Source: Candidatus Omnitrophota bacterium
Lineage (GTDB): Bacteria > Omnitrophota > Gorgyraeia > JABMRG01
DNA length: 64,000 bases
Direction of reading: 5' to 3'
NCBI GenBank assembly: GCA_028716165.1
Contig: JAQUQI010000005.1
Coordinates: 24,996 to 88,995 of the forward strand
Positions 1-29,062 of this stretch are shown one piece after another. Every line of letters begins with the position of its first letter. Positions within the stretch are counted from its first letter, which is position 1. Both the position numbers and the translations under genes were made by a program. The notes beneath the pieces were generated by a model that did not search any database, was not told the DNA's origin, and was given only the letters and a program-made list of their open reading frames with translations.

Positions 1-3000
1 ACTTATGTTTTTAATTTTGACGCGGAAACAGGGCGCGTTACGACCGGCGAATTAAAACGTTATGCGGACAGCGGAAGGCCGATATTGATAGCTCTTGAAT
101 ATACCCCGGGCAAAGAAGGAAAATCGCCATCATTTAAAGCCAGGGTTTTTGGTTCGCAACAGGACATGGAAGATGCCCAAGACTTGCTTACAAGCGGCTC
201 CCAGATCGTGCTTGTTTCAAAGGCCGATTCTTTTGTGGTCCATGAGGTCCAAAAGGCCGGCGAAGGATATGTGGCAAGGCTTGACGGTAACGGAGCTCCT
301 GTTGTGTGGATCCATGCGGAATATAATAAAGGCAACCCTGATGTTGAAAGATCAGGTGCTGTTAGCGCAAGCATACAGGACATGCGCCTTATTGCTGATA
401 TTCAATCTGTGTCAAAAAAACTCAGATTAAAAGGTCCAGATGGAAATGATATTACCGGTTTAGCCCAAATTACCGATGCTAACAATCTTGAATCTGTCTT
501 GAACAAAGACTTGGGAGAGCCTGTGCAGGTCTCAACAGAACTTCCGGATCATAAATACGTTATTATGGCCTATAACAGCGGCACGAAGCAGGTCCTGCCT
601 TTTTACGGCAAAAGCACGTTTGATGTTTATACGCAGTTTTATAATTCGCCCGAACACGAAAAAGAATTTGAATTGCTCAATCTTTTAAAGATAGGAAACA
701 TCATTTATACTGATGATAATTCTTCCTGGCTGGGCGGTTTTGAGCCTCAACGGGGCGGGGTGCGAAGGGCGAAGATTACCATGTTCAATGACAACAAGGG
801 GAATGAATACCCCGTGAAGATAGGCCATGACGCGCAAACAAGAGATGATTTGTATGCCTACGGCGTCCTTGAAATAGATATAAGAGATGATTCTTTTAAT
901 CCAACGGGATCATGGGTGTATTATCTTAACAAACAAGGACTTCCAATAGATCGCCTGCCGCATGAAGAGGCTTGTAATTTAAGAAATGTTAGCATAAATT
1001 TTAGCGGTAAGAATGAAAACGCGAAGCTTTTGATAAATGATATCGCGTACGGGCAAAATGCCCATGATAAGTTCGGGGCATTTTTACCTTTTGCCGCTGA
1101 TGTTTATGATGTTTCTGGCGGCGCGCCCCGGCCTGTGGGCATACATATTGATGATAGGGGCAGAAACCGTATTTATTTTGAATTTACATCCCAGGCAACG
1201 CAGTCAGCAGACGGCACATGGTCTGTTCCCGCGCTGGCTTTTTGCGATATGTATGACGACCAAAACGTGTATTTAGGTCAATACGCTTTTAATTCTATAG
1301 TGAAGTGGACCGAAGGAGAGGACGGAGCCAAGGCATATACATATGAGATAGGAAACGCTCTCTCCTGGGGGGTCGAAGCCCAGTCAGGACCGTACGCGGG
1401 CAATAAATTTGTGTATATTTTAGACAGTACCAGGAAAAAAGATGATGGTAGTTATATTATATCTAATGAAATGCTCGGCAAGCTTGGTACCACAGAGCGC
1501 GGGTCCCATATTCTTAGCGGTAAAGATTTGGATACTTTAGGCATAGATAAAAACAGCAAAGCCGTGAGCAGGATACTAAGGGCGGCCCAAATATATCAGG
1601 CGGGCTTTGAAGCCGGGGACCCAAGCCGTGTTATGCTGTTTGACAGCTCTTATCCGGGAAGGGAAAAAGAAGCGGTCGCTATGTCACAGTACCCTGGCGG
1701 TGAATTGGAAATGGTTATTCGCGGCCCGAATAGCAAGGAGATTGCCAGATTTACTTTTGGAGATAGTGACAGCTATGACACCAATAAATTCGGTCTTTAC
1801 AGAAAAATAGTTGAGGATTTTCAAACAGACCAGTCTGAAAAGATTAAACAGATGGCGTTAAGCGAGGGCATTATTACAATACCTGTTAAATTGGGTAATT
1901 ATTATATTGGTCACAGATATAATAATGAGACATCATTATATGAGCATGGTATGTTTAAAACGCTTGCAGATCTTGCGAAAGCCGGATATGCAATCTATGA
2001 TGAAATTACCGCGGCGCAAATATTCAGGCTTGACAGTGACACCCCGGCGAAAATAGAGTTTTTTGCAAACGATGGTTCAAGCCTTGGCAGGGCAATAACA
2101 GATCAAAAGCTTAGCTTGTCGGTTTTTGATAAAGGTGGAGAAAAAATAGGCGAAAACGTTTATGAGTTTGTTTTTGACAGGTTGACAGGCAATGTGGTTA
2201 TAGGCAAATTTTTGTATTTTATTGATACAAAAAAGGCTGAAGAAATGCTTGGTAAAATGCTGGAGGCATTGCGTGAAGACCCTGTCGCGCTTGAAGCATT
2301 TAACCTTTTAACAGGCGCGGGCATAAAAGACAGCGGCAAATTAAGCCAGGCGCAACTGGACGTATTGTATACCCTTATATTTAAAAATGATTTGGGAGAA
2401 TTCCATGAAAATGCCGCGGATACTGAAAAAACGCTTGAAGGCCTAAGACTTGCTTCATCAATGCTTGCAGCTTTAAGGGGTAATCAAGGCGCTTTAGAAG
2501 CGTTTAACGCATTGACTAATGCCGGATTTGCTAATGAGGGTTATCTGGCAGACAGCCAATTAGCGGTATTATACGGCATGATATATGATGGTGAGGGCGA
2601 AAAACATAAGCATGCAGGAGATCCTAAAACAACAATGGAGGGTATTATATTAGCCAAAAAGGCGCTTGACCAATTGAGGGCCAACCCGTCGGAATTAGCG
2701 GCGTTTAACTTAATAGCGGGAGTTAACATCAAGCTTTCCGGGCCGCTAACCGCCGAAGAATTGACCGCTCTATACACACTGGTATATGATTCAGACGGAG
2801 ATTTTTACAGGGATTCCGCCGGTTATGCATATACCCCTATTGAAAGTATAAAATTTGCCGGGCCCATGCTTAAGGCCCTGCGCCTTGACCTGGAAGCCCT
2901 AAAAGCATTTAATCTTTTTACAGGCGTAAATATCCAGCCAACAGGCAAATTAAGCCAGAGTCAGATAAATGCTCTTTATGGGCTTATTTATGGCGCGAAT

Positions 3001-6000
3001 GGAGACTTCCAGCCAAATGCCACAGACCCCATAGCGACCATAGAAGGTTTAAAATTAGCTGTTGCTATGCTGGACAGCCTAAGAAGCAATCCGGAGGCAT
3101 TGAAGCTGTTTAATCTTTTTACAGGCATTAATATTACTTTACAGGGAGCGTTGAACGGAAAACAAATAGATGCCTTGTATGGGTTGATATATACAAAAGA
3201 TGCGGATGGTAAAACTATATTAAAAGATAATGCCGATGACCCTGCTTCCGCTATTCAGGATATTATCACCTTCTACAACAATGTAGTCTCATATGTTATA
3301 GCCATATCAGCCAATCCCAATGCCATGGCCTTAGCAAACAGCGCTTTTGGTTTAGGCCTTACACCCAATATGACGGCAGGCAATATAACCCAGGCCCAGC
3401 TTAAGATATTCTCCAATAGCGACCTTGGCATACTCTATGATGAAGGAGGAGTTTTAAGAGATATTGATACTGTGGTGATGCTTTTTAAAAGGATGGGTGA
3501 GATATACGCTAATTGGGATAGCCAGGCGCAGTCTGCCTTGAGGATATTTTCTGGTGTGGACATAGCGCCAGGCCTAGACTCTTTAAACTCTGATCAGATT
3601 AAAGCTTTTAACACTTTACTATTTGATAGAAATGGTAATCTTTATCTTACTGATGCTGAATTTGATGCCCAAACAGTAGTAGCTAATTTAAAGAGGGTTA
3701 TTTACAAAGTAGGAGATACTTATGTTACAGAAAACGGTTTAGCGGCATACAGCCTGAATAGCAATAGCCCGGGGGTAAAACCCCTCCTGCTTGCGCAGGT
3801 TACAAAAACCGGTAAACATGATAGGATGTATATAATTGATCCGTCTATACCTAATACTGATAATGTCTATGCCGAGATTCTGGAAGGCGATATTGATCTG
3901 GATGCCGGCACTATCAATCTGAAGTTTGTTGTTAATGTAGGGCGTGACAGCGCGGGTAATCGCATATCTTCTGTCACAAACTATGATGGCCGGGAGGTCC
4001 AGAGGGGAACACTTGCGGGCTTTATAGACAGTTCCGGCGGTTATATACCGTCAGATGTTTATATAGACGATTTATCTGATATCGCGGCTGTCAGGATGAA
4101 AATTACTACATCTTTGTTTGGCCAGCAATGGTATGAGGAATATGATTTTAATGGAAACATTGTCAGAACTATAAAGCCTTATCCTGAAACAGGCCAGGCC
4201 GAGGTTGTTAAATACAATGTTAAGGAAAATGGATCATTTCCGGATAGCCGGTCATATTTATATGAATATGATAACAACTTGAACGATATAAAGACTGATA
4301 AGCCTGTTATGGATTTGAGGGAATCAAAAATTATCGGCTATACGGATATGAATGACCCTATTGCTTTTGTTCATGATTCAGTTACCGATTCTTATTGGCA
4401 GGAAATAATAGACCCTGTTGGCAGGGTAAAAGCGAAAGTAATAGGGGATTATAATGCGGCTGCAGGTATTTTTAGTCCTATTGCCATAGAAATCCCTTCG
4501 TATGATGGATATATTGGGGCATCAGCTATCGGCTCCAGCAAGATGTATGAATATTCTAAAGCTAATGGATATAATACCGCCGCGTATGCCGGTTCAAAGG
4601 TTCTTATTGAAACAGGCAAAATAGAAATTATAACAATAGACGGCCGCGTTTGTGTAAGAAGCTTTTACTTTAATAATAAGACCAATGTCAGCTGGCAGGA
4701 GATAAAAGACGCCAGAGGTAATATTATAGCTAAACTCTACCAGTATCCTGATTCGGGTTCATCCGGTTATCGCGCGTCATTCGTTGAAATTATGCAGTAT
4801 GAGCCCGGTATAGGTTCAATAGAAGGCATTGCCCAGAGCGGAAAGCTTTATTTATTCACGGGCAGAGAAGACTTGAGAGATTTTAGCATAAGCCAATATG
4901 CTGATAAACCTGTCCTGACGGAGAGTTATCTTGTAGATCATTCCGGAAAGGCTATTACTACGGTTGAGGCCCTAAAGATGGACAGCCTTGTTTACCAGTA
5001 TGAGAACAAGGTCTCAAAATTAGTATGGCAGGAAGAAAGGGACAACCGTGGACGGCTGATAGCAAAGTATACCGGTGTAAGTTCGCGTGATGACCAAGGC
5101 AACTTGACAGGTTTTTCAAGAAAGGTTGTTGAGAAGATTACGCCCACAGGCATATTGGGTGTCATGCATATATCCGCTACAAGTAATAGTTATTTATATG
5201 AAACCTACCAAGGTGAAAAAGGAAAACATCTTAGTGAATATAGACCCGAATTTGCTTATGTGTCAGCTCAAATTATCAATGATTCCGGCAATGCAGTAGA
5301 TTCGCTTGCAGGTATTGCGCAAGATAATACAGTTACTTATAGATATGTAAATCACAAAACACATTTAGTGTGGGAAGAGGTGCGAGACGGTTTTGGGCGC
5401 ATTATAAGACGCTATGACGGTGAAACTTTAGGGGACAAATCAAGCCCATTGACAGAACCCTTTAAACGTGTTCTTGTTACCGATCAATATTATGAAGGTC
5501 TCATTGGTGATTTTGGTTTAAGTACCAGCAGTGAAGTTTATTCGCTGGATGAGTCCGGTAAGAAAGTCGGTAATCCGATTGACCAATCAGAACTTTTAAG
5601 CAATAAGTTTGAAAAACTTGATTTTGAACAATTGTCCGCAACCGATAGTTTTGGCGCGCTTAAGAGTATTTTTGATGAACAGGGCAGGATATATTATCAA
5701 GGCAGCCGTGCTTACAAAAGATCTGATATACGGGGAGAGGGTTTATTAGAATACCGTGAAATAAAAAATAATACGGGATCTATTGAAGAGAGGTTTGAAG
5801 GTTACAAGGATCCAAGCGGTAAATTCGTTAGCAATCTAAAAAGATACTTTTTCTACCCGGACAGCGATATCTGGCGTTCATTTAGTATTGCCCAAAAAAC
5901 AATTCTTACTATATTTGTTGACGGCAAAGAGATTATTTTTTCTGTTGCCAATAGAACAAGTTTTGATGAACAGACAGGGGATATATCTTATAGCTGTAAG

Positions 6001-9000
6001 AAGGGCAAGGGTATTATTAATTTCCCGCAAATTACATATACCAATCTGGAGCAGAGCCTTGACCTGTTATTTGAAGATGCCAAAGGTTTTGAATATGTGA
6101 CCTATGCATGGCAAGAAATAAAAAATAATAGAGGATGGCTTGTGCAGACGAGAGAAGGGTTTGGCCTTGATGATAAAAATTTTCCGATGGGCGTTCCCAG
6201 ATACATTACTTTCTTAAAAGGTTATTCGTTGGATATACCCATTAGTTTAGAGGCTCACATATATAAATATGATGACAATGCCGGTGAGCGTCTTGACGGA
6301 CAGGTTATCCGGACAAAGCAAACAGAATCAGATTATAGGCACGGTACCAAGGTTGGGTCTCTGCAGGGCCTGCATTTTACAGATAACATAGCTGTATACG
6401 ATGTTAATGACACCCGTATCAACAGAAAGTCTGTTAATAATAGCGGATACAGAATGGACGGCAGGCTTGCTTGGGAGATTCACGCCGGGAAAATGTTTAG
6501 AGATAAGGTTTATTTAACATATTTTAATGAGTTGGAATGCGCTGATTATAGCGCGCGGCTTGTCGGTGTGCTTTCTCCGATTGCGGGTAGCAAGTTAAAT
6601 ATCACAAACCGTCTTGCCGAAATAAAACAAGAACCTTATAAGACACATTATACTATTATGATACCAAGCAAGCCCGGGTCTTATATTGTGTGGGATAAAA
6701 CGCCTGACCAGGCAAAAAATGTTTGGTTTGCTGTTGACCGGTTTATGGATGGCGATGAAATTGATACGGAAAAGGTTTCATCCAAAGGCTTTACTCGGGC
6801 CGTAGAAAACAGGAATATTTTTACAGCCCCATCTGAAGATTCGGCTCTTAACCTCGCGGAACAAGACGGGAAATATTTTTCCGAAGGGGAATTCTTGTAT
6901 GAAATTAAGAATAAATACACCCCTGTTTTGTGGAGATCCTATCATGAAAACAGCATACGAGAATACATTGGCGTTCAATTCAATAAACACATTAAAAATT
7001 CATGGTTATATAATGCTATTGTGGAATCCAATAAACGCGATACATTATCGCCTATCGTTATAACAACGGCAGTATCTTTGGCAGCCATAACATTTTTACT
7101 GCCTTTGGCATTGTTTTTGTTTACATACGTTTTGTCGTATGTTCATTTCAAAAAACTCGGCAAAAAGCAAATCGCGGATACCAAAAGTTCCGGTTTGCCG
7201 GGCGAGGGGGGAGATATTGCTTCGGGCAGGGCGCCATCCGCACAGGCGCCTGGTCACGCGTCTGCTAAAGTTTCGCCTGGCGCGCCTTCTGTGCCTGATC
7301 AAGAAATTAGGGTCAGGGTTGCCGATATAAATCGTCATTTGTATCTTAATAAAGCTTTCACTGATTATTTGATTTCTTTGTACTATAAGACTGATGAAGA
7401 ACTGTTCGCTTTGTTAGATGCCTATTATCCCGACACTCATAGTGAAAAACCCGCCATGCTTTCAGAGCGTTATAAATACAGTATGGTATTGAATAACAAT
7501 ACGGTTTCGCCTGATAGCAAGCAAAGAGCAAAGTATGATTTTGTTGATAGAGTTTTTACAAAACCTATATCATATTTGATGCTTGCAATCATGATTGACC
7601 AGGCTGAAAAATGGGACTGGATGAATAAAGGCGAACTTGATAAAGGTGACAGAATTACAGGCGGCCTTGCAGATAATTTCTGGCCGTTTACGGACAGGGA
7701 TATGAAACGGCTGTTTGAGTACTTTAAAGCAGACGGAAAAGACCCTATCTTGGAATTAGGCCTGTATAAGTATCTTGGCGCAACAACGCTCCAGCAATGG
7801 TATATGGACGCTAATATAAAGGCTCTTAAAGAGAAAGCAGATAAAAATACGACCGAGAAGCAAGCGAAAGCTAATGTTAAGAAAAAGAAAGACCATAAAT
7901 TGGAAAAAGGAAAGCTGATTGAAGAAGCTATCAAACCCGCTAAAGAGTGGCTTGCTAAAAGATATGAATATGAAGGCCTGCATCAGACTGTATACCCTAT
8001 GAAGGTTAATAAGATTATCAATCTCGTCTGGCGTGTTTTCGCTTTAGGCGGGACTGCCGGCTTGATTGCTATGGCAATAACTTCATTTTCATCGTTTGGT
8101 GTTATTGGCCTTGTTTTTACCGGATTGATCTGGTCGTTTGTCCTTGTTGAAACGCATAAAATGCTTCAATATGCGCAGTTTCATAAGAATTGGCTCCAGG
8201 GCCTTCGGACCATGTTTAAGGCCAGGGCTGATTATAAAGGCCCTCTTTCAGAGGCCGAACTAAAAGTAAAAAAGAATTTCTTCAAGGCGTATTTTGGATG
8301 GATGGGGACATACGCGGCTGTTATAGTGGGCTTTAGCCTGCTTTATAGTGTTGGCAGTATACCATGGTTTGGTTGGCTTGCCGCTATCCCTATTTTAGTG
8401 ATTTCTTTGCGGGAATCTTTCAGGAGCTGGTGGTATATTTTTACAGAATCTGCCGCCACGGCAATAAGCCGTAACCAAAGACTGGATAGCCTGAAACGGT
8501 ATGAAGATATAGGCAAACAAGAGCTTGACAGGATACGCCGCAATGAATATTTGAAGGATGTTTTTAAAGATGTTGTTATAGAAGCAACGCTTTCGGTGGA
8601 GTCAGGTTTTCATCTTATATCAAAACAGGAAGAACAGGCACTTATAAAAGTCCTGAACGATCCGAAAGCAAAAAAGTTGCCGGATCTTAAAAGCCCTCAT
8701 GCTAAACAGGAAATCATCAAATGGTTTAATACGATACTTATGTTTGATGAGGATGAATTTAAGAGAATATATGACCAGACGAAACTTGATGAGCTTAATC
8801 CGTCAATATTCAAGGGGACAGGTAAAAAGAGAGTTTTACCCACACGCGATTTTCTTGACGCGGAAGACGGTGAGACAAAGGATGCCAAGGGCGTTATCAC
8901 AGAATATACACCCGCAGGCATTATAAAATCCGGTTTTTATGTGTTTAAAGAAGAATTCAAAGAGTCGTGGGAAATTTTTCTTAGAGATGATATTTTTAAT

Positions 9001-12000
9001 GGTGTAGCAGTTGATGATGCTTTTCTAGAACGCCTGATGGATCCCAAGACAACCCTTAAACAAACCATAGAAGACATCGCGCAAAAATTAGGCAGAACGC
9101 AAAAGGATATAGAAGAATACATAATTTCAAAATGGATAGTATTTCGTGCTGACGGGTATTTAAAGACACTTCTTTTTGCTGAACGCGCGGGAGAAGCGGC
9201 ATACAGGGTTTTAATAAAGCACAAATTTAAAGACGAAAATGGCCGTGATCCAAGTGAAGCGGAAATAAACGATATTTTGAAAAAACATCTTATGTTTATT
9301 CATGTCCATGAAGATATAGATCCGGATATACAGAACTGGGGTGGAAAGAACCCTAGCGAGATTATTAATATATTATGCGATACAAACAGGCCGCAAGGAA
9401 CCTATACGATAAACGGCTGTTCTTATGCTGATACAGGTAGCGAAAAGAGCTTTAATAGAACATTTACGCCCCAGGATTCAAACAAAATAATTCTTTCAAC
9501 GAAAGAATTTAAAGGTCATGATTATCTTAAGGATGAGGCAAAAAGATGGGTTGTTAAAACCGATAAGTGGTCAGTAACAGCTCGTTTTATAGAAAAGTTT
9601 TTGAAAGACATAGTCAAAGAAGACGCTATGATTGTCAATCTGGATAGGGATCATTTTTTCTATCCATCCGAATTTTTCATGCTCCCGTTTTTAGCGCAAA
9701 GATTTACTTCCGAAGATAATCTTGGTTATCTGACCACAAGGCTTGATATGAGGACGGGGTATGTCGCCCCTACCGGCGCCGCGCATCAGGTAGCAGAAGA
9801 TACATGGAATTTAAGGACATTGCTCGCGGAAGCTCTTTTGGGCGCGTCCTCTTATTACGGCCCGGGATTAGTGCGTTGGAGTGTTATGAGGAGCTGGGGC
9901 GCTTATATGTCTAATATAGAGGACACCGCCGCGGCGCACGAAGCTATAATGGATGGCATGCGCGGCGACCATACTACCTGGATTACCTGGGGCAGGCCAA
10001 GAGAAATGGTCGGCGCTTCTATCCTTGATTTTCAGAACAGGTTTGGCGGACTTGTTATTGATGAATTTCTTTCAGTGCATTATCAGAAATTATTAAAAAG
10101 CGATAAGGCGCATTGGACTGAAAAGCTGACAATATTCCAGAATTTTGATTTTTACTTTAACAAACCATTGATACCGCACTTTAATCTACTGATCTTTTTG
10201 TTCTCATTTTTTATTAATTTTACTCCGTTTTCATTTTTTGCCCTGCCGATATTATTTGTAAGCCTTGGGTATCTGTTTTCACAGGCTATAACATCGGGAG
10301 GCATAAGATTATTCCATGCCAAACAGCCGTTTTTAAAGGCCTGGGCGTCTTATTCAAAAATGTTCTGGGGCCTTGTGTTTACTTTCGTTCCTTTGATACC
10401 CATGCACGGCGAGAAGGCATTAAATGCTTTTAAGGGTACCGCAGGAAGATTCAGCAGCGGTATTAAAGATATTTTCTACCCTGCCGTAAAGTTTAGGGAA
10501 TTATACAATCTTTACAAGCCGTCCATTCGCTGGGGAGTCGCATTATTAGGGATATTATGCTTGGCGCCGACACATCCCTGGGCTATTGTGACCCAGATAT
10601 TTTTTCATATATTCCCTATCGCGTTTATTTTTGGGCCTTTTATGAAAAATGCCCCTGCTAACAAGAAGATAGCGGCCTCTGTTTTTGGCGTAAGCGGAGC
10701 ATTGTTTGCTTTAAACGCCATCTTTGCCTTTATGCCTATGCCTTTTGTAGCGGCAGTGGCTTTAGGTATCATTATTGCCGCAGGGCTGACTGGTAAAGAA
10801 AAATATACCAAGGGTATAACGCACGGGTTATTGGCTATAGTATATTATCTGTTAAGAATAGATGATATCTTTTTTGATCGTCCCGGAGCCCGGGGCCCAG
10901 ATGCAAAAGGTGTAAAAACCAAAGTCAAAGACCGCAAGTATAGCCCCTTAATGACATCATTGCTGATATCAGTATCCCTGCCTTTTTATGTCCTGCGGCT
11001 TGATTTATTAGGAGCATTAATAAAAAAACAGGATTCAAAAGCGGAATTAGGGGCTGGTTTGGAATTGGGCCTTGATCTTTCAAGAAAAATATTTAACCCT
11101 TTGAATGAGTCTTCCGGAAAATTTGCCGCTCTCATGAACGATTCACTTAAAGCGCTTATGTCTCTGGCACAATCCGACCAAAACTTAGACGCTTATTTGC
11201 AAAATTTATTAAGCAAAGAAGATAATATTTCTAAAAATATAAGCATAAGGGTATTAAAGAACTTGCCTGTTAACGCGGCAAGGTATCTAAATGATATGGG
11301 TTCTGTTGAAATAGTTTTAAATGAAAGATTTGTGCTTTCTCTTCTTAATGATTATGACTCATACCCTGTTGTAAAATATATACTTGCCGAACGCCTGTTT
11401 CATGAATTAGGCCATGATAATAAGACTGGAACAGCGCAGGAAGAAGTTGACGAAGAGGCCGAGCTTATAGCCAGGGACTTAGAACTTCACTCCATCATAT
11501 CCTCTGATATCCAAAACGAAATCAATAAATATTTTCAAGATAAAAAACCATCTTTTCCTTCAGGTTATTATTTTGTATTTTTAGACAAACTGTCAAAACT
11601 TGGCGATGGCCAAAGATCCGCGAGTATAAGAGATTATATAAGGCAGAACGGCCTGGCTATAGGCAGGCTTAGTGATGATGAAATAAATGCGCTATCGGTT
11701 GAGGAGCTTGTTCAATTGATAGAGAGTGTTCTTGACATGAGCGGGAAAGAAATAGCGAATAAGTTTTTATTGTATTCGGCCGCGCCTGGTACCGGCAAAG
11801 GCGAAGTTATGGACGCTATCTTTACCGAAGGCAAAGGTAAATACGCTCATCTTGTTGATAAGCTGACACTTTATCACACAAGGTCTCCGCGCGTTAAAAA
11901 AGGTATATCCGAAAAAGATGGCATTGCCTATCATTTTAGAGGAGAGGACGAGCTAAGACAGCTTGAAAAAGAGGGCAAGATTATTACCGCTCTTGTAAAT

Positions 12001-15000
12001 AACCAGCTTCAAGGTATGGCATTAGAGACTTTTTACGAAGAAATTACAATAAGGAAATCCGATTTAGCTGATAGCAAAAAGGCTGTTGTGCTTAATGATG
12101 ATATAAAAATAGAGGAAACCGATGAATACATAAAAATCCGCCGAAAAATACGCGGCCTGAATGATATCTTTAAGGGGCCTAAGCTTGCGATACTTGAGGG
12201 CGGCTATGGATGGTTTGAGAGTATTAAAAAAGACCCGCGTTATAAAGAACAACATAAAGATGTTTTAACAATATTTATATCTCCTTTTACTGATGAGGAA
12301 ATAGGTATAAGGGCTCTTAACAATGCCTGGGTTGATTCAAAATTCAAATTGCCGGAAGAAAAGGCGGCTGCTTATAATGAAATTTTTGTTGTAATTAAGG
12401 AATTGCAAAACGAAATAAACCTTGTCAATGATGCCAATTTACAGCAAAGGGTGATAAGAGCCGTAGAGGATAACGCGCCTTCGCTTAAGGATTCCGCGGC
12501 TTGTCACAATGCTCAAGTAATAGATAGCAATGAATTCTTAAGCAGCTTAAAAATTGATATTAAGTCCCCCGGCGCGATAGATAAGGTCAAAGCCCTCGCG
12601 TATGAAGTAAACAGAAGGCTTTCTATGCGGGACGGCGAAATCAAATTCGCTTATTCTATCAAAGACGACCCCGCCGGTTATGACAGGTATCAGAGGGTGC
12701 TGGAAGGCATTATGCAGATAGTTAATAAAAATGAATATGACACCGTTTTGACGAACACATGGGGCTATACTGATAATGCGAGAAATCAAAACATAGAGAA
12801 ACTAACAATGGAATTTTCAAAAAGCTTTTTCTCGCATGTGGTAAAAGGCCTCCGTGATTCAGCCAAGGCCAGTTCAAAGGCTTTTGCAAAACGAGCATAT
12901 CCTGAGGGGTTATTAGATATGGCAAAAAAATATTTCAATTCAGATATAGAGAAAACCCTTAAGCAATTAAAGGATTGGGCAAAAGCTTATAATGACGCTG
13001 TCAAAAACAAAGAGATACTGGATACGGAAGAAATGACAGTGGAAAGACTGCTTAATATAAAAACAGCAGAAGGCCAGACGGATGCTGTAGAATATTTTCA
13101 TATAATTGATTCTGACGGTAATTATATCGGCATCAAGCCAAGGCCTCTTGCGCATCTTTCTAAAGCAAATGAAGATTGGCACAGGAGCGTATTTGTCATC
13201 GTAGTTGATGAACAAGGCAGGATGCTGGTGCAGACTCGTTCTGCCAATAAAGACCATGCCCCTAATGCCAGAGATATTTCTACGGGCGGGCATATGGGCT
13301 TATTGGATGATGGGCGAAATCTCGCTGATACGACAAAAGAAGTTGCCCTAAAAGAACTTGGGGAAGAGTTATTTAACATAGGCAATCTTAAGGATTATAG
13401 TATTTCTCCTGACAGGCTTTCTATGATAAGCGAGGTAGACGGGCTAAGGCTTTCCGTTCAATATACGACCCCTGTTAAAGGGTGGGATAATGAGCGTGTC
13501 ACTGTGTTTCTTTATTGCGCATCAAAAATGGATATAGAAAGAATTGACGCGGCAGCAAAAGCGATAAGTGACGAAAAGGCTTCATTTACCGCTTTTGAGG
13601 GTGAGGTAGCGGCTATGGAATGGGTTGCAATATCAGATGAATGGAATAAATTTAAAAACATGCCAGATTCTGACAGGCGCGTCAATTATGGGGCCGGTTT
13701 TATAAAGTTGTTTACGGATTACGATCGGGATGTATCGGATCCGGATACTGTTTTAGGAAAGATAGCGCGAATGTCTAATGATCTCAAGGCGCTCTATGCC
13801 AAGTTTTCAGAGTACGAAAAGAGGCTTGGCGAAAGATCTATAGGCCAATTTGTTGGGAAACCATTTGATCCTAACAGGCATATTTATCGTCCGAAGGTAG
13901 GCCCTGATGGCGAGATGCTGCCATTTTCCGGCTTCACAGTAGCTAAGAGGATAACGGAAGGGAAGCTGCGTGAGGCATTAATCGCATTTCAAGAAACAAT
14001 GAAAGAAGAGCTTAAAGCCGCGGGCATGGGCGATGTAGTGGCATTTCTTGATCCTGCCTCGCTTCATATGACTATAGCGGATATTGATCCCAGCCGGTCA
14101 TATCCAAAAGGAACAAGTTTTGAACAAGCCGGACAAAGGTTAGGCCAGATAGACAGCGCTTTTAAAGATATAGGCACGCCCGGCGCAGTACAGTCTACGG
14201 TCCGTGGCTTAGGCCTTGGGAATACGATCTCGGCGCTTGTAAGATTTACTCCAGAAGATCTGGACAAGGCCCTTTTGCTTGAAGGCGCTGTTCAGAAATC
14301 CGCGGATGTGTTCAATAGGCAGTTTACCGGGCATATAAGCTTAGGATATATAGCAAAAGAACCTGAAGATTATGACAAGTTTATCGCGATTCTCCAGAAA
14401 TACGCAGATTATAATTTTGGCGAACTGTTAATTGATACAATTGCTTTATTGCATTTTTCCGACATGAATCATTATACGCCTTTAAAGGAGAAGAATTTGG
14501 ATACAGGTGAGATTACAGACCGTTCCGAAGCAAAAGAGTTTTTGGAGTTTTTAAGAAAAGCCCCCGAAACAGCTCAGGATGAGGTTGTAGGTGGAATTTT
14601 CGGCATAATGACGGCAATTTTGGAAAACGACCCCCGGGCTGGAGATGTCAAGAAAGCCCCCGAAACAGCAGAAAGGCCCGCTGACGAGCTCGTAGATGAA
14701 CTGTACCGCAATAAAGAGCCTATGGGTTCTATACGAAATATTGCCGACTTGGAAAAACTGGCATTGGATAATATTAATGATAATATGGTTGTGGAGCCTA
14801 TAAAAAAGGTTCTTATTGATATTCTTAATGATGAGCAGACGGCCGGAGAGGATTATATTTTTGTTCGCGAAATGGCGGCTTATGCGTTGAGAATATTCGC
14901 GGATATCAATATTATACGTTCGCTGATGACCGTTGCTTCGCTTGAAAACGCGATGAACACTGAAACAGCTGGCAATGAGCTGCCGCCAGCCATTGCGGGC

Positions 15001-15519
15001 CTTGATCTTGCCGGCGTTGCCGATTATTCGGTTGAATATCAGCTTGCCTTATCATTACTGGACTATTCGCCTTCCGGACAGCTGTTTGTTAATAGAGACA
15101 AGCAGGCAGTGATAGTTTACTCGGATGCTCTCAAGCAAAGCAGGGCATTGCAGGATATCCTTAGGGCGTCTGTTCAGGACGAGAGAAGGTTCTATTTCGT
15201 TAATAAGACATCCCTAAGTTCCGGTGAATTTTTAGCAGGGGTCGGCCTGGATACTTTAAATTTTGATAATATTATTGAAGCCGAGGATATGTCCGCAGGG
15301 CAAATAGCCGAAACTGTAATGTCCGAATTGGCTAATCAGCACATAACCCAAGCCCGCGTTTTTGCCGCATTGGATCAGGATTTAATGTCGTGGAAAACAG
15401 CTTCTATTGAAACACTCCTCATGCTTCTAAAGGACAAGAGGTTTGAGATAATATCCGATTACAGCCAGCAGCATGCCGAATATATCAGGACGCATGCCCA
15501 GGCGTTAACAGCAGCATAA
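1..15519 (+). CDS. Giant multidomain membrane protein, 5'-partial (>5144 aa). Contains tandem ~68-aa repeats, Rhs/YD-like repeats, three TM clusters, a guanylate-kinase-like domain with degenerate P-loop, a Nudix/IDI-like domain, and a C-terminal module paralogous to the ORF at 16714.
   Basis: One uninterrupted frame from base 1 to the stop at 15517-15519. The ORF track begins at a TTG at 85, but codons 1-84 have no stop, so the true start is upstream. Hydrophobic helices lie at about nt 7040-7140, 7990-8420 and 10150-10960. GK-like motifs are APGTGKG ... LYHTRSPR..DGIAYHF ... ILEGGYGW ... IFISPFTDEEIG. The IDI/Nudix-like stretch is HRSVFVIVVDEQGRMLVQTRS...GGH...KELGEEL. Confidence 0.85.
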   Translation, partial: TYVFNFDAETGRVTTGELKRYADSGRPILIALEYTPGKEGKSPSFKARVFGSQQDMEDAQDLLTSGSQIVLVSKADSFVVHEVQKAGEGYVARLDGNGAPVVWIHAEYNKGNPDVERSGAVSASIQDMRLIADIQSVSKKLRLKGPDGNDITGLAQITDANNLESVLNKDLGEPVQVSTELPDHKYVIMAYNSGTKQVLPFYGKSTFDVYTQFYNSPEHEKEFELLNLLKIGNIIYTDDNSSWLGGFEPQRGGVRRAKITMFNDNKGNEYPVKIGHDAQTRDDLYAYGVLEIDIRDDSFNPTGSWVYYLNKQGLPIDRLPHEEACNLRNVSINFSGKNENAKLLINDIAYGQNAHDKFGAFLPFAADVYDVSGGAPRPVGIHIDDRGRNRIYFEFTSQATQSADGTWSVPALAFCDMYDDQNVYLGQYAFNSIVKWTEGEDGAKAYTYEIGNALSWGVEAQSGPYAGNKFVYILDSTRKKDDGSYIISNEMLGKLGTTERGSHILSGKDLDTLGIDKNSKAVSRILRAAQIYQAGFEAGDPSRVMLFDSSYPGREKEAVAMSQYPGGELEMVIRGPNSKEIARFTFGDSDSYDTNKFGLYRKIVEDFQTDQSEKIKQMALSEGIITIPVKLGNYYIGHRYNNETSLYEHGMFKTLADLAKAGYAIYDEITAAQIFRLDSDTPAKIEFFANDGSSLGRAITDQKLSLSVFDKGGEKIGENVYEFVFDRLTGNVVIGKFLYFIDTKKAEEMLGKMLEALREDPVALEAFNLLTGAGIKDSGKLSQAQLDVLYTLIFKNDLGEFHENAADTEKTLEGLRLASSMLAALRGNQGALEAFNALTNAGFANEGYLADSQLAVLYGMIYDGEGEKHKHAGDPKTTMEGIILAKKALDQLRANPSELAAFNLIAGVNIKLSGPLTAEELTALYTLVYDSDGDFYRDSAGYAYTPIESIKFAGPMLKALRLDLEALKAFNLFTGVNIQPTGKLSQSQINALYGLIYGANGDFQPNATDPIATIEGLKLAVAMLDSLRSNPEALKLFNLFTGINITLQGALNGKQIDALYGLIYTKDADGKTILKDNADDPASAIQDIITFYNNVVSYVIAISANPNAMALANSAFGLGLTPNMTAGNITQAQLKIFSNSDLGILYDEGGVLRDIDTVVMLFKRMGEIYANWDSQAQSALRIFSGVDIAPGLDSLNSDQIKAFNTLLFDRNGNLYLTDAEFDAQTVVANLKRVIYKVGDTYVTENGLAAYSLNSNSPGVKPLLLAQVTKTGKHDRMYIIDPSIPNTDNVYAEILEGDIDLDAGTINLKFVVNVGRDSAGNRISSVTNYDGREVQRGTLAGFIDSSGGYIPSDVYIDDLSDIAAVRMKITTSLFGQQWYEEYDFNGNIVRTIKPYPETGQAEVVKYNVKENGSFPDSRSYLYEYDNNLNDIKTDKPVMDLRESKIIGYTDMNDPIAFVHDSVTDSYWQEIIDPVGRVKAKVIGDYNAAAGIFSPIAIEIPSYDGYIGASAIGSSKMYEYSKANGYNTAAYAGSKVLIETGKIEIITIDGRVCVRSFYFNNKTNVSWQEIKDARGNIIAKLYQYPDSGSSGYRASFVEIMQYEPGIGSIEGIAQSGKLYLFTGREDLRDFSISQYADKPVLTESYLVDHSGKAITTVEALKMDSLVYQYENKVSKLVWQEERDNRGRLIAKYTGVSSRDDQGNLTGFSRKVVEKITPTGILGVMHISATSNSYLYETYQGEKGKHLSEYRPEFAYVSAQIINDSGNAVDSLAGIAQDNTVTYRYVNHKTHLVWEEVRDGFGRIIRRYDGETLGDKSSPLTEPFKRVLVTDQYYEGLIGDFGLSTSSEVYSLDESGKKVGNPIDQSELLSNKFEKLDFEQLSATDSFGALKSIFDEQGRIYYQGSRAYKRSDIRGEGLLEYREIKNNTGSIEERFEGYKDPSGKFVSNLKRYFFYPDSDIWRSFSIAQKTILTIFVDGKEIIFSVANRTSFDEQTGDISYSCKKGKGIINFPQITYTNLEQSLDLLFEDAKGFEYVTYAWQEIKNNRGWLVQTREGFGLDDKNFPMGVPRYITFLKGYSLDIPISLEAHIYKYDDNAGERLDGQVIRTKQTESDYRHGTKVGSLQGLHFTDNIAVYDVNDTRINRKSVNNSGYRMDGRLAWEIHAGKMFRDKVYLTYFNELECADYSARLVGVLSPIAGSKLNITNRLAEIKQEPYKTHYTIMIPSKPGSYIVWDKTPDQAKNVWFAVDRFMDGDEIDTEKVSSKGFTRAVENRNIFTAPSEDSALNLAEQDGKYFSEGEFLYEIKNKYTPVLWRSYHENSIREYIGVQFNKHIKNSWLYNAIVESNKRDTLSPIVITTAVSLAAITFLLPLALFLFTYVLSYVHFKKLGKKQIADTKSSGLPGEGGDIASGRAPSAQAPGHASAKVSPGAPSVPDQEIRVRVADINRHLYLNKAFTDYLISLYYKTDEELFALLDAYYPDTHSEKPAMLSERYKYSMVLNNNTVSPDSKQRAKYDFVDRVFTKPISYLMLAIMIDQAEKWDWMNKGELDKGDRITGGLADNFWPFTDRDMKRLFEYFKADGKDPILELGLYKYLGATTLQQWYMDANIKALKEKADKNTTEKQAKANVKKKKDHKLEKGKLIEEAIKPAKEWLAKRYEYEGLHQTVYPMKVNKIINLVWRVFALGGTAGLIAMAITSFSSFGVIGLVFTGLIWSFVLVETHKMLQYAQFHKNWLQGLRTMFKARADYKGPLSEAELKVKKNFFKAYFGWMGTYAAVIVGFSLLYSVGSIPWFGWLAAIPILVISLRESFRSWWYIFTESAATAISRNQRLDSLKRYEDIGKQELDRIRRNEYLKDVFKDVVIEATLSVESGFHLISKQEEQALIKVLNDPKAKKLPDLKSPHAKQEIIKWFNTILMFDEDEFKRIYDQTKLDELNPSIFKGTGKKRVLPTRDFLDAEDGETKDAKGVITEYTPAGIIKSGFYVFKEEFKESWEIFLRDDIFNGVAVDDAFLERLMDPKTTLKQTIEDIAQKLGRTQKDIEEYIISKWIVFRADGYLKTLLFAERAGEAAYRVLIKHKFKDENGRDPSEAEINDILKKHLMFIHVHEDIDPDIQNWGGKNPSEIINILCDTNRPQGTYTINGCSYADTGSEKSFNRTFTPQDSNKIILSTKEFKGHDYLKDEAKRWVVKTDKWSVTARFIEKFLKDIVKEDAMIVNLDRDHFFYPSEFFMLPFLAQRFTSEDNLGYLTTRLDMRTGYVAPTGAAHQVAEDTWNLRTLLAEALLGASSYYGPGLVRWSVMRSWGAYMSNIEDTAAAHEAIMDGMRGDHTTWITWGRPREMVGASILDFQNRFGGLVIDEFLSVHYQKLLKSDKAHWTEKLTIFQNFDFYFNKPLIPHFNLLIFLFSFFINFTPFSFFALPILFVSLGYLFSQAITSGGIRLFHAKQPFLKAWASYSKMFWGLVFTFVPLIPMHGEKALNAFKGTAGRFSSGIKDIFYPAVKFRELYNLYKPSIRWGVALLGILCLAPTHPWAIVTQIFFHIFPIAFIFGPFMKNAPANKKIAASVFGVSGALFALNAIFAFMPMPFVAAVALGIIIAAGLTGKEKYTKGITHGLLAIVYYLLRIDDIFFDRPGARGPDAKGVKTKVKDRKYSPLMTSLLISVSLPFYVLRLDLLGALIKKQDSKAELGAGLELGLDLSRKIFNPLNESSGKFAALMNDSLKALMSLAQSDQNLDAYLQNLLSKEDNISKNISIRVLKNLPVNAARYLNDMGSVEIVLNERFVLSLLNDYDSYPVVKYILAERLFHELGHDNKTGTAQEEVDEEAELIARDLELHSIISSDIQNEINKYFQDKKPSFPSGYYFVFLDKLSKLGDGQRSASIRDYIRQNGLAIGRLSDDEINALSVEELVQLIESVLDMSGKEIANKFLLYSAAPGTGKGEVMDAIFTEGKGKYAHLVDKLTLYHTRSPRVKKGISEKDGIAYHFRGEDELRQLEKEGKIITALVNNQLQGMALETFYEEITIRKSDLADSKKAVVLNDDIKIEETDEYIKIRRKIRGLNDIFKGPKLAILEGGYGWFESIKKDPRYKEQHKDVLTIFISPFTDEEIGIRALNNAWVDSKFKLPEEKAAAYNEIFVVIKELQNEINLVNDANLQQRVIRAVEDNAPSLKDSAACHNAQVIDSNEFLSSLKIDIKSPGAIDKVKALAYEVNRRLSMRDGEIKFAYSIKDDPAGYDRYQRVLEGIMQIVNKNEYDTVLTNTWGYTDNARNQNIEKLTMEFSKSFFSHVVKGLRDSAKASSKAFAKRAYPEGLLDMAKKYFNSDIEKTLKQLKDWAKAYNDAVKNKEILDTEEMTVERLLNIKTAEGQTDAVEYFHIIDSDGNYIGIKPRPLAHLSKANEDWHRSVFVIVVDEQGRMLVQTRSANKDHAPNARDISTGGHMGLLDDGRNLADTTKEVALKELGEELFNIGNLKDYSISPDRLSMISEVDGLRLSVQYTTPVKGWDNERVTVFLYCASKMDIERIDAAAKAISDEKASFTAFEGEVAAMEWVAISDEWNKFKNMPDSDRRVNYGAGFIKLFTDYDRDVSDPDTVLGKIARMSNDLKALYAKFSEYEKRLGERSIGQFVGKPFDPNRHIYRPKVGPDGEMLPFSGFTVAKRITEGKLREALIAFQETMKEELKAAGMGDVVAFLDPASLHMTIADIDPSRSYPKGTSFEQAGQRLGQIDSAFKDIGTPGAVQSTVRGLGLGNTISALVRFTPEDLDKALLLEGAVQKSADVFNRQFTGHISLGYIAKEPEDYDKFIAILQKYADYNFGELLIDTIALLHFSDMNHYTPLKEKNLDTGEITDRSEAKEFLEFLRKAPETAQDEVVGGIFGIMTAILENDPRAGDVKKAPETAERPADELVDELYRNKEPMGSIRNIADLEKLALDNINDNMVVEPIKKVLIDILNDEQTAGEDYIFVREMAAYALRIFADINIIRSLMTVASLENAMNTETAGNELPPAIAGLDLAGVADYSVEYQLALSLLDYSPSGQLFVNRDKQAVIVYSDALKQSRALQDILRASVQDERRFYFVNKTSLSSGEFLAGVGLDTLNFDNIIEAEDMSAGQIAETVMSELANQHITQARVFAALDQDLMSWKTASIETLLMLLKDKRFEIISDYSQQHAEYIRTHAQALTAA
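2233..3700 (+). repeat. In-frame tandem array inside the giant gene: 5 clear and 2 degenerate copies of a ~201-204 nt (~68 aa) unit, consensus ..ALEAFNLxTGxNI..G.Ls..Q...LY.LIY..DGDF......DP....EGL.LA..ML..LR.NP
   Basis: ALEAFN / ELAAFN / ALKAFN / ALKLFN recur at nt ~2287, 2491, 2692, 2893 and 3094 with a 201-204 nt period. Two further decayed copies sit near 3330 and 3540-3650. Confidence 0.7.
4380..6160 (+). repeat. Dispersed Rhs/YD-like repeats inside the giant gene, motif [SVA]W(Q/E)E..D..G(R/N)(L/I)I..Y, at least 5 copies
   Basis: SYWQEIIDPVGRVKAKV (~4390); SWQEIKDARGNIIAKLYQY (~4691); VWQEERDNRGRLIAKYTG (~5025); VWEEVRDGFGRIIRRYDGE (~5375); AWQEIKNNRGWLVQT (~6110). These resemble the YD-repeat core D..GRL....Y, flanked by Y.YD/Y.YEN motifs. 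Confidence 0.4.
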
Positions 15520-25932: not shown

Positions 25933-27240
25933 ATGAATAAATTTATATCACTTATATTAGCGGCCGGACTGGCCGGTATTGCCGGCTGCGCGCCAAGCGC
26001 GGTTGAAACTAAGGGCCCCGAGAAAATACTTGTGTGGCATTGGATGACCGACAGGGAAGAAGCCTTTGACGAATTGGCAAGAAGATACAAATCTCTTACA
26101 GGCACCAATGTTCAGTTTGAACTGTATGCTCCGACAGACGCGTATGATGAGAAAATAAAAGGCGCCGCCCAGACTCAGACCTTACCTGATATTTTCGGAG
26201 TTCTCGCGGACAAAAGGGTGATCGCGTCGTTTATTAATGCCGGCCATATCTTAAATCTTGGCCCATACATGGCACAGGATAACGGAAAATGGGAGAATAC
26301 CTTTTACGAAAAAGCGCTGAACGTAAACAGGTTTTTGGATAATAATGAATTTGCCGTTACGCCCGGTATATACGCCGCGCCGATAGATGTTATGAATATC
26401 CAGATGGTATATAATAAAGACCTGTTTAAGAAAGCCGGGCTTGACCCTGATAATCCTCCGAAAAACTGGGCTGATTTTCTTGATGCCGGCAATAAACTCA
26501 ATGCCGCCGGTATACAGGGCATGGTAAGCGGCTGGGGCGAGATATGGATGATAGACTGCCTTGCTTCAAATTATGCTTATAATATAATGGGCGAGGAAAA
26601 ATTTATAAAGACATTAACAGGCGAAGTTGCTTATACTGATCCTGACTGGATAAAGGTTTTTGGCCTTTTCAGGGATATGAGGGATAATAACCTGCTTGCC
26701 AGCGGTATCGTTACCATGGTCAATAAGCATGCTGAACAGATGTTTGCCAATCAGCGCGCGGCCATAGCCTTTAACGGTTCGTGGTGCGTTAACGTGTATC
26801 ACGGTATGAACCCGGATCTGAATTACGGCGCAATGCTGCCGCCGGCCTATTCTGATAAACATCCTATGATGGTATGGGGCGGGGCCGGAGCCAGCTTTAT
26901 GGTGAACGCCAGAAGCGCGCACAGGGAAAAAGTGGTTGAGTTTTTGAAATGGCTTACCGCGAAAGACCAGCAGGCATACCTGTCAACCCAGACCAGAAAC
27001 TTGCCGGCTAATAAAGACAGCCTCGGCGCGATACCCGAAGTGCTTGCGCAGTTTGTTGATGATATGGATTTGGTCAACCATCCCAACAATCTTAATGTAT
27101 CGGAATTTCCCAGGGTAATTGAGGCAAGGAGCAAGGGAATACAGTCTGTTATCATTGGAGAAAAAACACCTGAAGAGGTTGCGTTAGAGGTGCAAGCGGT
27201 TAAGCTGCGCGAACTTCAAAAATCCCAGGGCAAGGATTAA
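25933..27240 (+). CDS. ABC transporter extracellular solute-binding lipoprotein (family 1, oligosaccharide-type)
   Basis: Lipobox IAGC. Length and composition are typical of sugar SBPs, and it lies directly upstream of two MalF/MalG-type permeases. Confidence 0.7.
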   Translation: MNKFISLILAAGLAGIAGCAPSAVETKGPEKILVWHWMTDREEAFDELARRYKSLTGTNVQFELYAPTDAYDEKIKGAAQTQTLPDIFGVLADKRVIASFINAGHILNLGPYMAQDNGKWENTFYEKALNVNRFLDNNEFAVTPGIYAAPIDVMNIQMVYNKDLFKKAGLDPDNPPKNWADFLDAGNKLNAAGIQGMVSGWGEIWMIDCLASNYAYNIMGEEKFIKTLTGEVAYTDPDWIKVFGLFRDMRDNNLLASGIVTMVNKHAEQMFANQRAAIAFNGSWCVNVYHGMNPDLNYGAMLPPAYSDKHPMMVWGGAGASFMVNARSAHREKVVEFLKWLTAKDQQAYLSTQTRNLPANKDSLGAIPEVLAQFVDDMDLVNHPNNLNVSEFPRVIEARSKGIQSVIIGEKTPEEVALEVQAVKLRELQKSQGKD

Positions 27241-27270: not shown

Positions 27271-28170
27271 TTGAGTAAAAAAATGCAAATAAAAAAAACA
27301 AAAACGATACTATCTAACTATCTTTTTGTCCTGCCGGCTGTTCTTTTGTTTTGCACGTTTCACGTATATCCTTTTATCAATGTATTCCGCTATTCTCTTT
27401 TTCAGTGGGACGGTATATCTCCCGCCATGAAATTCATAGGCCTTGCCAATTTCAAGGACATTTTTACCGCCAATTCCCAGTGGTGGTATTCCATGTGGCA
27501 CGCTTTTTATATCACACTGCTTACTCTGATATTTCAGAATGGTTTGGCATTAATACTGGCGCTTGCCTGTGACAGGGCGATAAAAGGCGCCCAGACCTAC
27601 AGGATGATATTTTTTCTGCCGCCCGTGCTTTCAGGAATAGTGGTAGGCCTTATTTGGCAGTGGATATACGACGGCAATTACGGGCTTTTGAACTATTGGC
27701 TTACGAGGATGGGCATAGGCCATCTTGCCCGCGCCTGGCTGGCTGACCCCAAAACAGCGCTAACATGTGTGGGGGTTGTCCATATGTGGAAAGGTTTTGG
27801 GTGGGGTTTTATTATATTGCTGGCCGGATTACAGTCAATACCGCGGGAATTATATGAAGCCGCTAAAGTGGACGGCGCCGGCGCCTGGGACTCCTTTGTA
27901 AGGGTCACGGTGCCCCTTATGATACCTGTTTTTGTCCTTGTTGTGATACTTACCATATTAAATACTATGCAGATATACGACCTTATAGTTTCTCTTACGG
28001 GCGGCGGCCCCGGATATCACACGGAAGTTCCTATTACAAGGATATTGGCTTCTATGAGAGGCGGTTCCCAGCTTGGTTATGCGTGCGCGCTTGGCGTAGT
28101 GTTCGGCTTGATACTTCTGGCTATTTCGTTCGCGCAGATACAGGGTTCAAAGCTTGTGAAGCAGGAGTAA
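27271..28170 (+). CDS. Sugar ABC transporter permease (MalF/UgpA-type)
   Basis: Six hydrophobic segments. EAA loop ELYEAAKVDGAGAWDSFVRVTVPL. The start may instead be the ATG at 27283. Confidence 0.8.
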   Translation: MSKKMQIKKTKTILSNYLFVLPAVLLFCTFHVYPFINVFRYSLFQWDGISPAMKFIGLANFKDIFTANSQWWYSMWHAFYITLLTLIFQNGLALILALACDRAIKGAQTYRMIFFLPPVLSGIVVGLIWQWIYDGNYGLLNYWLTRMGIGHLARAWLADPKTALTCVGVVHMWKGFGWGFIILLAGLQSIPRELYEAAKVDGAGAWDSFVRVTVPLMIPVFVLVVILTILNTMQIYDLIVSLTGGGPGYHTEVPITRILASMRGGSQLGYACALGVVFGLILLAISFAQIQGSKLVKQE

Positions 28171-28177
28171 TTTTTTT

Positions 28178-29062
28178 ATGCAAAAACCGGCATACTACAA
28201 AGCCAAGCAGTTTTTACTAACATATCTGACCCATATTCTGCTTATTATTGTGTCAGCCAGCTGTATACTGCCTTTGCTGTGGATGTTTGCCTCAAGCCTT
28301 AAAACCCAGGCAACTGTTTTTACGGACATGAGCCTGTGGCCGGCTAATCCCCACTGGGAAAATTTTTATATTGCCTGGACAAGAGGCGGGTTCGGAAAGT
28401 ATTTTTTTAACAGCCTTTTCTATACCATTGTTGTCGTAGTAAGCGTGGTTTTTGTCACTTCAATGGCGGCATATGGCATATCAAGGCTTAAGATACCCGG
28501 TAAGAATATCATATTTTTTGTGTTTCTGGCCGCCATGATGATACCAATACCCGGAGTTTTCGTCGCTCTTTATGTATTATTGAACAAGCTTGGTTTTTTA
28601 AATCCTAATACAGGGTTTTCTTTCCTTGACAATATGATTATGAGGATAGGGTATATGCTGCCTCTGATTAATAGCGGATTATCGCTGGGTATCTATATAT
28701 TAAAGACATTTTTTGATAAGATGCCCGGGGATTTAGAAGATTCGGGCAGGATAGACGGTTGTTCCAAATTCGGCATATACTGGCACATAGCGCTTCCTTT
28801 GGCCAAGCCCGCTATAGCGGTTATTGTTATTTTTAACACTCTGACCGTTTGGAATGAATACCTGCTTGCCATGCTGGTTTTGACCGGAAAGAGCCTGATG
28901 CCCCTTACGAGGGCTTTGATGGTATTCAGAGGGACCCATATCACGGAATATCCTCTTCTTATGTCAGGCATGTCCATAACCGTAATTCCTATAATAATAA
29001 TCTATCTTTTTTTGCAGAAACACATAATAGCAGGCATAACGGCAGGGGCGGTAAAGGGATGA
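28178..29062 (+). CDS. Sugar ABC transporter permease (MalG/UgpE-type)
   Basis: EAA-like loop LEDSGRIDGCSKFGIYWHIALPLAKPA, polytopic. Only 7 nt separate it from the upstream permease. Confidence 0.8.
   Translation: MQKPAYYKAKQFLLTYLTHILLIIVSASCILPLLWMFASSLKTQATVFTDMSLWPANPHWENFYIAWTRGGFGKYFFNSLFYTIVVVVSVVFVTSMAAYGISRLKIPGKNIIFFVFLAAMMIPIPGVFVALYVLLNKLGFLNPNTGFSFLDNMIMRIGYMLPLINSGLSLGIYILKTFFDKMPGDLEDSGRIDGCSKFGIYWHIALPLAKPAIAVIVIFNTLTVWNEYLLAMLVLTGKSLMPLTRALMVFRGTHITEYPLLMSGMSITVIPIIIIYLFLQKHIIAGITAGAVKG

Follow-up and report, generated by a model that had tools for sequence, protein, structure and literature searches.

A seven-module beta-hairpin array in an Omnitrophota giant protein, predicted to be built like YD shells but distinct from Rhs

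The shells of Rhs, teneurin and Tc-toxin proteins are assembled from YD repeat units of about 20-22 aa, one hairpin each. Few known gene products are as large or as poorly understood as the giant proteins of the Omnitrophota, whose sequence is mostly unannotated. For these proteins, AlphaFold has predicted an "antiparallel beta-helix tubule" (West-Roberts 2023, bioRxiv 10.1101/2023.11.21.568195). The published examples are about 1500 aa long and carry paired external helices or hairpins, and the preprint gives neither a sequence motif nor a family definition for the tubule. It also reports that pilZ and binding-protein-dependent sugar transport genes are conserved downstream of Omnitrophota giant genes, and argues for adhesion roles of the proteins (West-Roberts 2023, bioRxiv 10.1101/2023.11.21.568195).

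The window analysed here is a 64,000-nucleotide stretch of an Omnitrophota contig (JAQUQI010000005.1), and it opens inside a gene for such a protein. Reading frame 1 is already open at nt 1, so the gene extends upstream of the window. The relevant features, in window coordinates, are these:

1..15519, + strand: giant ORF of at least 5144 aa, frame 1, open from nt 1, host of the array
4024..6342, + strand: array of seven beta-hairpin modules of about 110 aa, aa 1314-2086 (HMM envelopes, as for each module below)
4024..4317, + strand: module 1, aa 1314-1411, motif WYEEYDFNGNIV at nt 4129
4309..4608, + strand: module 2, aa 1409-1508, motif WQEIIDPVGRVKAKV at nt 4396
4585..4923, + strand: module 3, aa 1501-1613, motif WQEIKDARGNIIAKLY at nt 4693
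4933..5265, + strand: module 4, aa 1617-1727, motif WQEERDNRGRLIAKY at nt 5026; the module modelled singly
5275..5607, + strand: module 5, aa 1731-1841, motif WEEVRDGFGRIIRRY at nt 5371
5656..5949, + strand: module 6, aa 1858-1955, degenerate motif YREIKNNTGSIEERF at nt 5752
5995..6342, + strand: module 7, aa 1971-2086, motif WQEIKNNRGWLVQTR at nt 6109
7042..7149, + strand: first hydrophobic membrane segment past the array, aa 2320-2355, followed by KKLGKK (hydropathy scan and sequence)
25933-27240: solute-binding protein (SBP) gene, downstream of the giant ORF
27271-29062: ABC permease genes, downstream of the giant ORF
32305-34434: PilZ gene, downstream of the giant ORF

The first-pass annotation had noticed an Rhs/YD-like motif recurring about five times between 4380 and 6160. 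The motif is real, but it has seven copies and the array that carries it is larger (4024-6342). A pattern scan of the giant ORF placed W-[QEY]-E-x2-[DN]-x2-G-x-[ILV] at aa 1349, 1438, 1537, 1648, 1763 and 2009 (nt 4129, 4396, 4693, 5026, 5371 and 6109 in the plus-strand ORF frame), and a Y-R-E variant at aa 1890 (nt 5752) makes up the seventh. Composition-preserving shuffles of the array region contained the W-[QEY]-E motif 0.0025 times on average, against six observed; the looser D-x2-G-[RKN]-x-[ILVT] occurs eight times, against 0.24 expected. Successive motifs lie 89-127 aa apart, and the motif is thus the marker of a module of about 110 aa rather than of a YD unit of about 20 aa. The module consensus runs ...iD..G..I...Y.d.dG.v.y...N....l.W-Q-E-v-k-D-x-x-G-R-l-v-a-k-Y-d-G in its N-terminal part and continues .....G.f....v..Y-y-e-G-l-l-G..G-I-A....T-Y-x-Y...., with conserved W, Y and F positions in every module and Y-x-Y-D at the ends of modules 1 and 7. 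The copies of the module are old and diverged: their pairwise identity is 17-30%, and we found no nucleotide-level repetition across the array.

Every sequence test of Rhs membership failed. Pfam RHS_repeat (PF05593), the RHS core and the NCBIfam YD models gave zero matches up to E=10 on the protein, the region or any single module, while the same search recovered E. coli RhsA, our positive control, at E 1.5e-68 in 10 stretches. A custom YD-unit HMM scored -2.1 bits on the array, compared with -0.4 +/- 2.4 for shuffles; it was built from internal repeats, the collected RhsA homologues being too alike (66-99%) for a diverse profile. Alignment of the module profile with RhsA by hhalign returned a probability of 0.8%, placing the D-x2-G-R-L-I turn on the RhsA "YDELGRLI" hairpin. 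The aspartyl autoprotease expected of an Rhs core was likewise not found: PF03527 and the NCBIfam core model (TIGR03696) have no match, and DP.G[LWIV], the form of the DPxGL motif sought, is absent across all 5144 aa. Nor did we find an N-terminal DUF6531, PAAR or VgrG-type element in the ORF of at least 5144 aa, the 5' end of which is open. By its sequence, the module array is a separate family from Rhs.

The structural picture, all of it based on AlphaFold2 models, is closer to the YD shells. Module 4 alone was predicted at pLDDT 80.7 and pTM 0.74, and the full array (aa 1300-2140, 841 residues, seven modules) at pLDDT 83.2 and pTM 0.84, values to be read with the possible over-confidence of AlphaFold2 on repeats and with a shallow input alignment (25 rows, some of them sliding windows of one protein). 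The array model is a continuous run of about 45 consecutive antiparallel strands in hairpins (49% strand, 10% helix by DSSP). In the prediction, a module supplies six or seven antiparallel strands and about one short helix, lying between hairpin runs, and the meander passes over the module borders uninterrupted. Joined at their edges, the seven modules are predicted to make up a single unbroken superstructure of antiparallel beta-sheet.

With a period of about 100 aa, a conserved W near the start of each unit and a conserved Y towards its end, the array could have been a flexible string of Ig/FnIII-like beta-sandwiches, as found in many giant adhesins, and the module profile did produce weak matches (E 0.2-1.3) to FnIII domains from integrin beta-4 and the insulin receptor. 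Those matches are non-significant and disappeared with a deeper profile. The pTM of the array model (0.84 for 841 residues) indicates that the modules are packed in a fixed way, the strand meander has no breaks at module borders, and the array model has no Ig or FnIII structural match. The sandwich reading is largely refuted, and we give it very little credence.

Foldseek searches of the PDB with the array model returned Rhs, teneurin or Tc-toxin YD shells as all of the best 13 matches (E 9e-16 to 4e-8), in alignments spanning about 900 columns. Beta-propellers such as DDB1 and DPP4 also appeared (E 1e-6 to 1e-3, TM about 0.1); they ranked below all YD shells and do not fit an uninterrupted meander, and were rejected. 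Global superposition of the array model on solved YD shells reached a TM of at most 0.16, and a closed cocoon that superposes on those shells was not obtained. As modelled, the likeness to YD shells is local, not global. The shell proposed by the first-pass annotation is supported as a hairpin run whose best structural matches are YD shells, and not as a sequence assignment or a superposable fold.

These results bear on whether the seven modules could be a diverged Rhs/YD cocoon, closing round a neighbouring polypeptide and releasing it as a toxin. The 13 shell matches with their long alignments, the turn that aligns with the RhsA YD hairpin and the Y-x-Y-D at the ends of modules 1 and 7 speak for such a cocoon. 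Against it stand the silence of the RHS_repeat, core and YD models with a working control, a YD-unit HMM score at shuffle level, the negligible hhalign probability, and the missing DPxGL motif and DUF6531, PAAR or VgrG-type element. The layout of the protein is also wrong for it. The first-pass annotation saw a toxin-delivery-like logic in a shell placed upstream of membrane segments and enzymes, but about 230 aa separate the array from a run of at least 10 hydrophobic segments, and about 1500 aa of nucleotide-enzyme-like domains (resembling guanylate kinase, NUDIX and 2H-phosphoesterase) come next; an encapsulated toxin would sit immediately behind a core. Together, the polytopic membrane stretch and the 1500 aa or so beyond it are far too large to enclose. 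Finally, the number of modules ranges from 3 to 16 among the homologues, which suits a fixed-size capsule poorly. We regard the diverged-cocoon explanation as improbable and a role as toxin cocoon as unlikely. Our verdict is that the array is a YD-shell-like but distinct, open-ended hairpin array.

The module recurs outside the window. A search of 1.84 billion representatives with the module profile matched 37 proteins, about 25 of them real family members, most of which are 1,500-7,100 aa long with 3-16 modules each. Eleven of the 37 were set aside as unrelated tandem-repeat proteins matched over just the hairpin part of about 25 aa (a Pfam scan of nine of these found no RHS match), and P0026 was excluded as a different, Ig-like repeat reached by profile drift. 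Among them, P0001 is an ortholog fragment with 72% identity over aa 1090-4697. P0009 also shares the membrane region, at 34% identity. Four others (P0006, P0014, P0015 and P0033) carry a helical insert of about 40 aa exactly where the modules of the window have their short helix. A word-index homology search with the array region and with a 65-module alignment gave zero matches despite the 72% ortholog, which reflects a limit of the method or index rather than absence of homologues. Gene context adds little here: the contig of P0001 consists of the gene fragment alone, and the giants P0009 and P0002 have no Pfam match themselves, while their surroundings share no conserved neighbouring genes with the window.

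The faces of the predicted strands differ weakly in hydropathy (means +0.59 and -0.89 KD); 24% of strand residues are charged and 17% are Y, W or F. We infer a weakly amphipathic single layer. One rival reading is a bridge-like conduit for lipids or other hydrophobic cargo, as in the repeating-beta-groove (RBG) proteins VPS13/ATG2 and bacterial TamB/YhdP or in chained LolA/Lpt-like half-barrels; carrying lipids between an Omnitrophota cell and its host or prey, it would be useful in an episymbiotic lifestyle. The array repeat, about 110 aa of several strands and a helix or loop beside a membrane anchor, recalls RBG units. A continuous hydrophobic groove is hard to reconcile with a more hydrophobic face at just +0.59 and with so many charged strand residues. 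In addition, VPS13, ATG2, TamB and AsmA-like structures are absent among the top structure matches, and the protein has no AsmA or DUF490-type Pfam match. We think a lipid conduit has only a slim chance of being correct.

The aromatic residues point in another direction. Strands rich in Y, W and F, with fixed W, Y and F positions in each module, could form a hairpin solenoid that binds glycans or cell walls in the manner of choline-binding or CROP-type repeats, serving prey attachment, with its shape secondary to multivalent binding. The neighbourhood suits this idea: alongside the sugar uptake genes are GH2-like and GH94 genes, that is, glycoside hydrolases or phosphorylases (the GH94 product is 76-80% identical to proteins of Omnitrophota MAGs), and adhesion is among the roles argued for giant proteins (West-Roberts 2023, bioRxiv 10.1101/2023.11.21.568195). 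Neither a carbohydrate-binding family nor a known CBM or cell-wall-binding repeat structure matched the array, and as a full explanation we consider glycan binding unlikely, though somewhat less so than a cocoon or a lipid conduit. It is compatible with the rigid stalk or tube that we favour, and does not exclude it.

The best explanation overall, and in our judgement probably the right one, is that the seven-module hairpin array is a rigid extracytoplasmic stalk or tube, distinct from Rhs. Seven diverged modules of about 110 aa would build a single rigid antiparallel sheet whose wall is constructed locally like that of an Rhs, teneurin or Tc cocoon. The membrane segments after the array would hold it in place, and KKLGKK behind the first of them suggests a non-cytoplasmic location, by the positive-inside rule applied to one membrane segment of a protein whose N-terminus lies outside the window. 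The stalk or tube would then be one part of a machine of many domains on the surface of an Omnitrophota cell that is predatory or depends on a host. The computations show the repeat, the family, the missing Rhs signatures and a predicted hairpin sheet with local likeness to YD shells; the tube geometry, the extracytoplasmic location and a structural or contact role are inferred.

A bolder proposal can be made for the family as a whole. The W-Q-E...D-x2-G-R module may define an unannotated family of about 25 clusters that would form open-ended hairpin tubes of variable length (3-16 modules), akin in construction to Rhs/teneurin cocoons. Outside the cell, Omnitrophota would use these tubes as conduits or spacers for reaching and exploiting their hosts or prey. 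We put this forward tentatively and consider it doubtful in its full extent. If true, the family would stand beside the YD shell as its "unclosed" cousin in evolution, and its tubes would be bacterial surface nanostructures of a new class.

The practical gain is a sequence definition for one dark region of the Omnitrophota giants: a module of about 110 aa centred on a W-Q-E-x2-D-x2-G-R hairpin, found again in a limited number of other very long proteins. For annotation, the label "Rhs toxin" is unsuitable for the array region, since its predicted wall is YD/Rhs-like but the parts of a toxin capsule are missing. If the tube geometry is confirmed, the hairpin-spiral principle will have been reused for an open structural element, and the module HMM will be a handle to find and dissect such structures in predatory or episymbiotic nanobacteria.

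Several known systems share parts of this design. The module profile matches engineered OspA single-layer sheets (E 6e-6). OspA itself, unlike the array, has globular domains capping a short flat sheet, and the match probably reflects hairpin composition, not common descent. About 175 residues of the array model superpose on porin barrel walls, an indirect hint at a hollow tube. About 100 residues align with LolA/LolB-like half-barrels, but the array lacks a hydrophobic cavity signature and any sequence relation to them. The Rhs, teneurin and TcB-TcC shells have in common with the array the long uninterrupted antiparallel hairpin sheet and the D-x2-G-R-L turn. Unlike them, the array has a higher-order repeat of about 110 aa with one helix per unit instead of units of about 20 aa, it has no N-terminal plug, aspartyl autoprotease core or C-terminal toxin, and the module number varies among its homologues.

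The closest counterpart is the tubule of West-Roberts (2023, bioRxiv 10.1101/2023.11.21.568195). The array spans about 800 aa with a single short helix per module, whereas the tubule examples reach about 1500 aa with paired external helices or hairpins. Both occur in Omnitrophota, in very long proteins with many membrane segments and NUDIX/HAD/HEAT-type content, and both are predicted as one unbroken antiparallel sheet, Rhs-like in flavour, in which helices recur at regular intervals. Like the tubule genes, the window has pilZ and sugar-transporter genes downstream. The array belongs to a giant Omnitrophota membrane protein, is modelled as a helix-interspersed sheet and sits upstream of the expected genes. 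Matched by phylum, description and gene context, it most likely corresponds to the "antiparallel beta-helix tubule".

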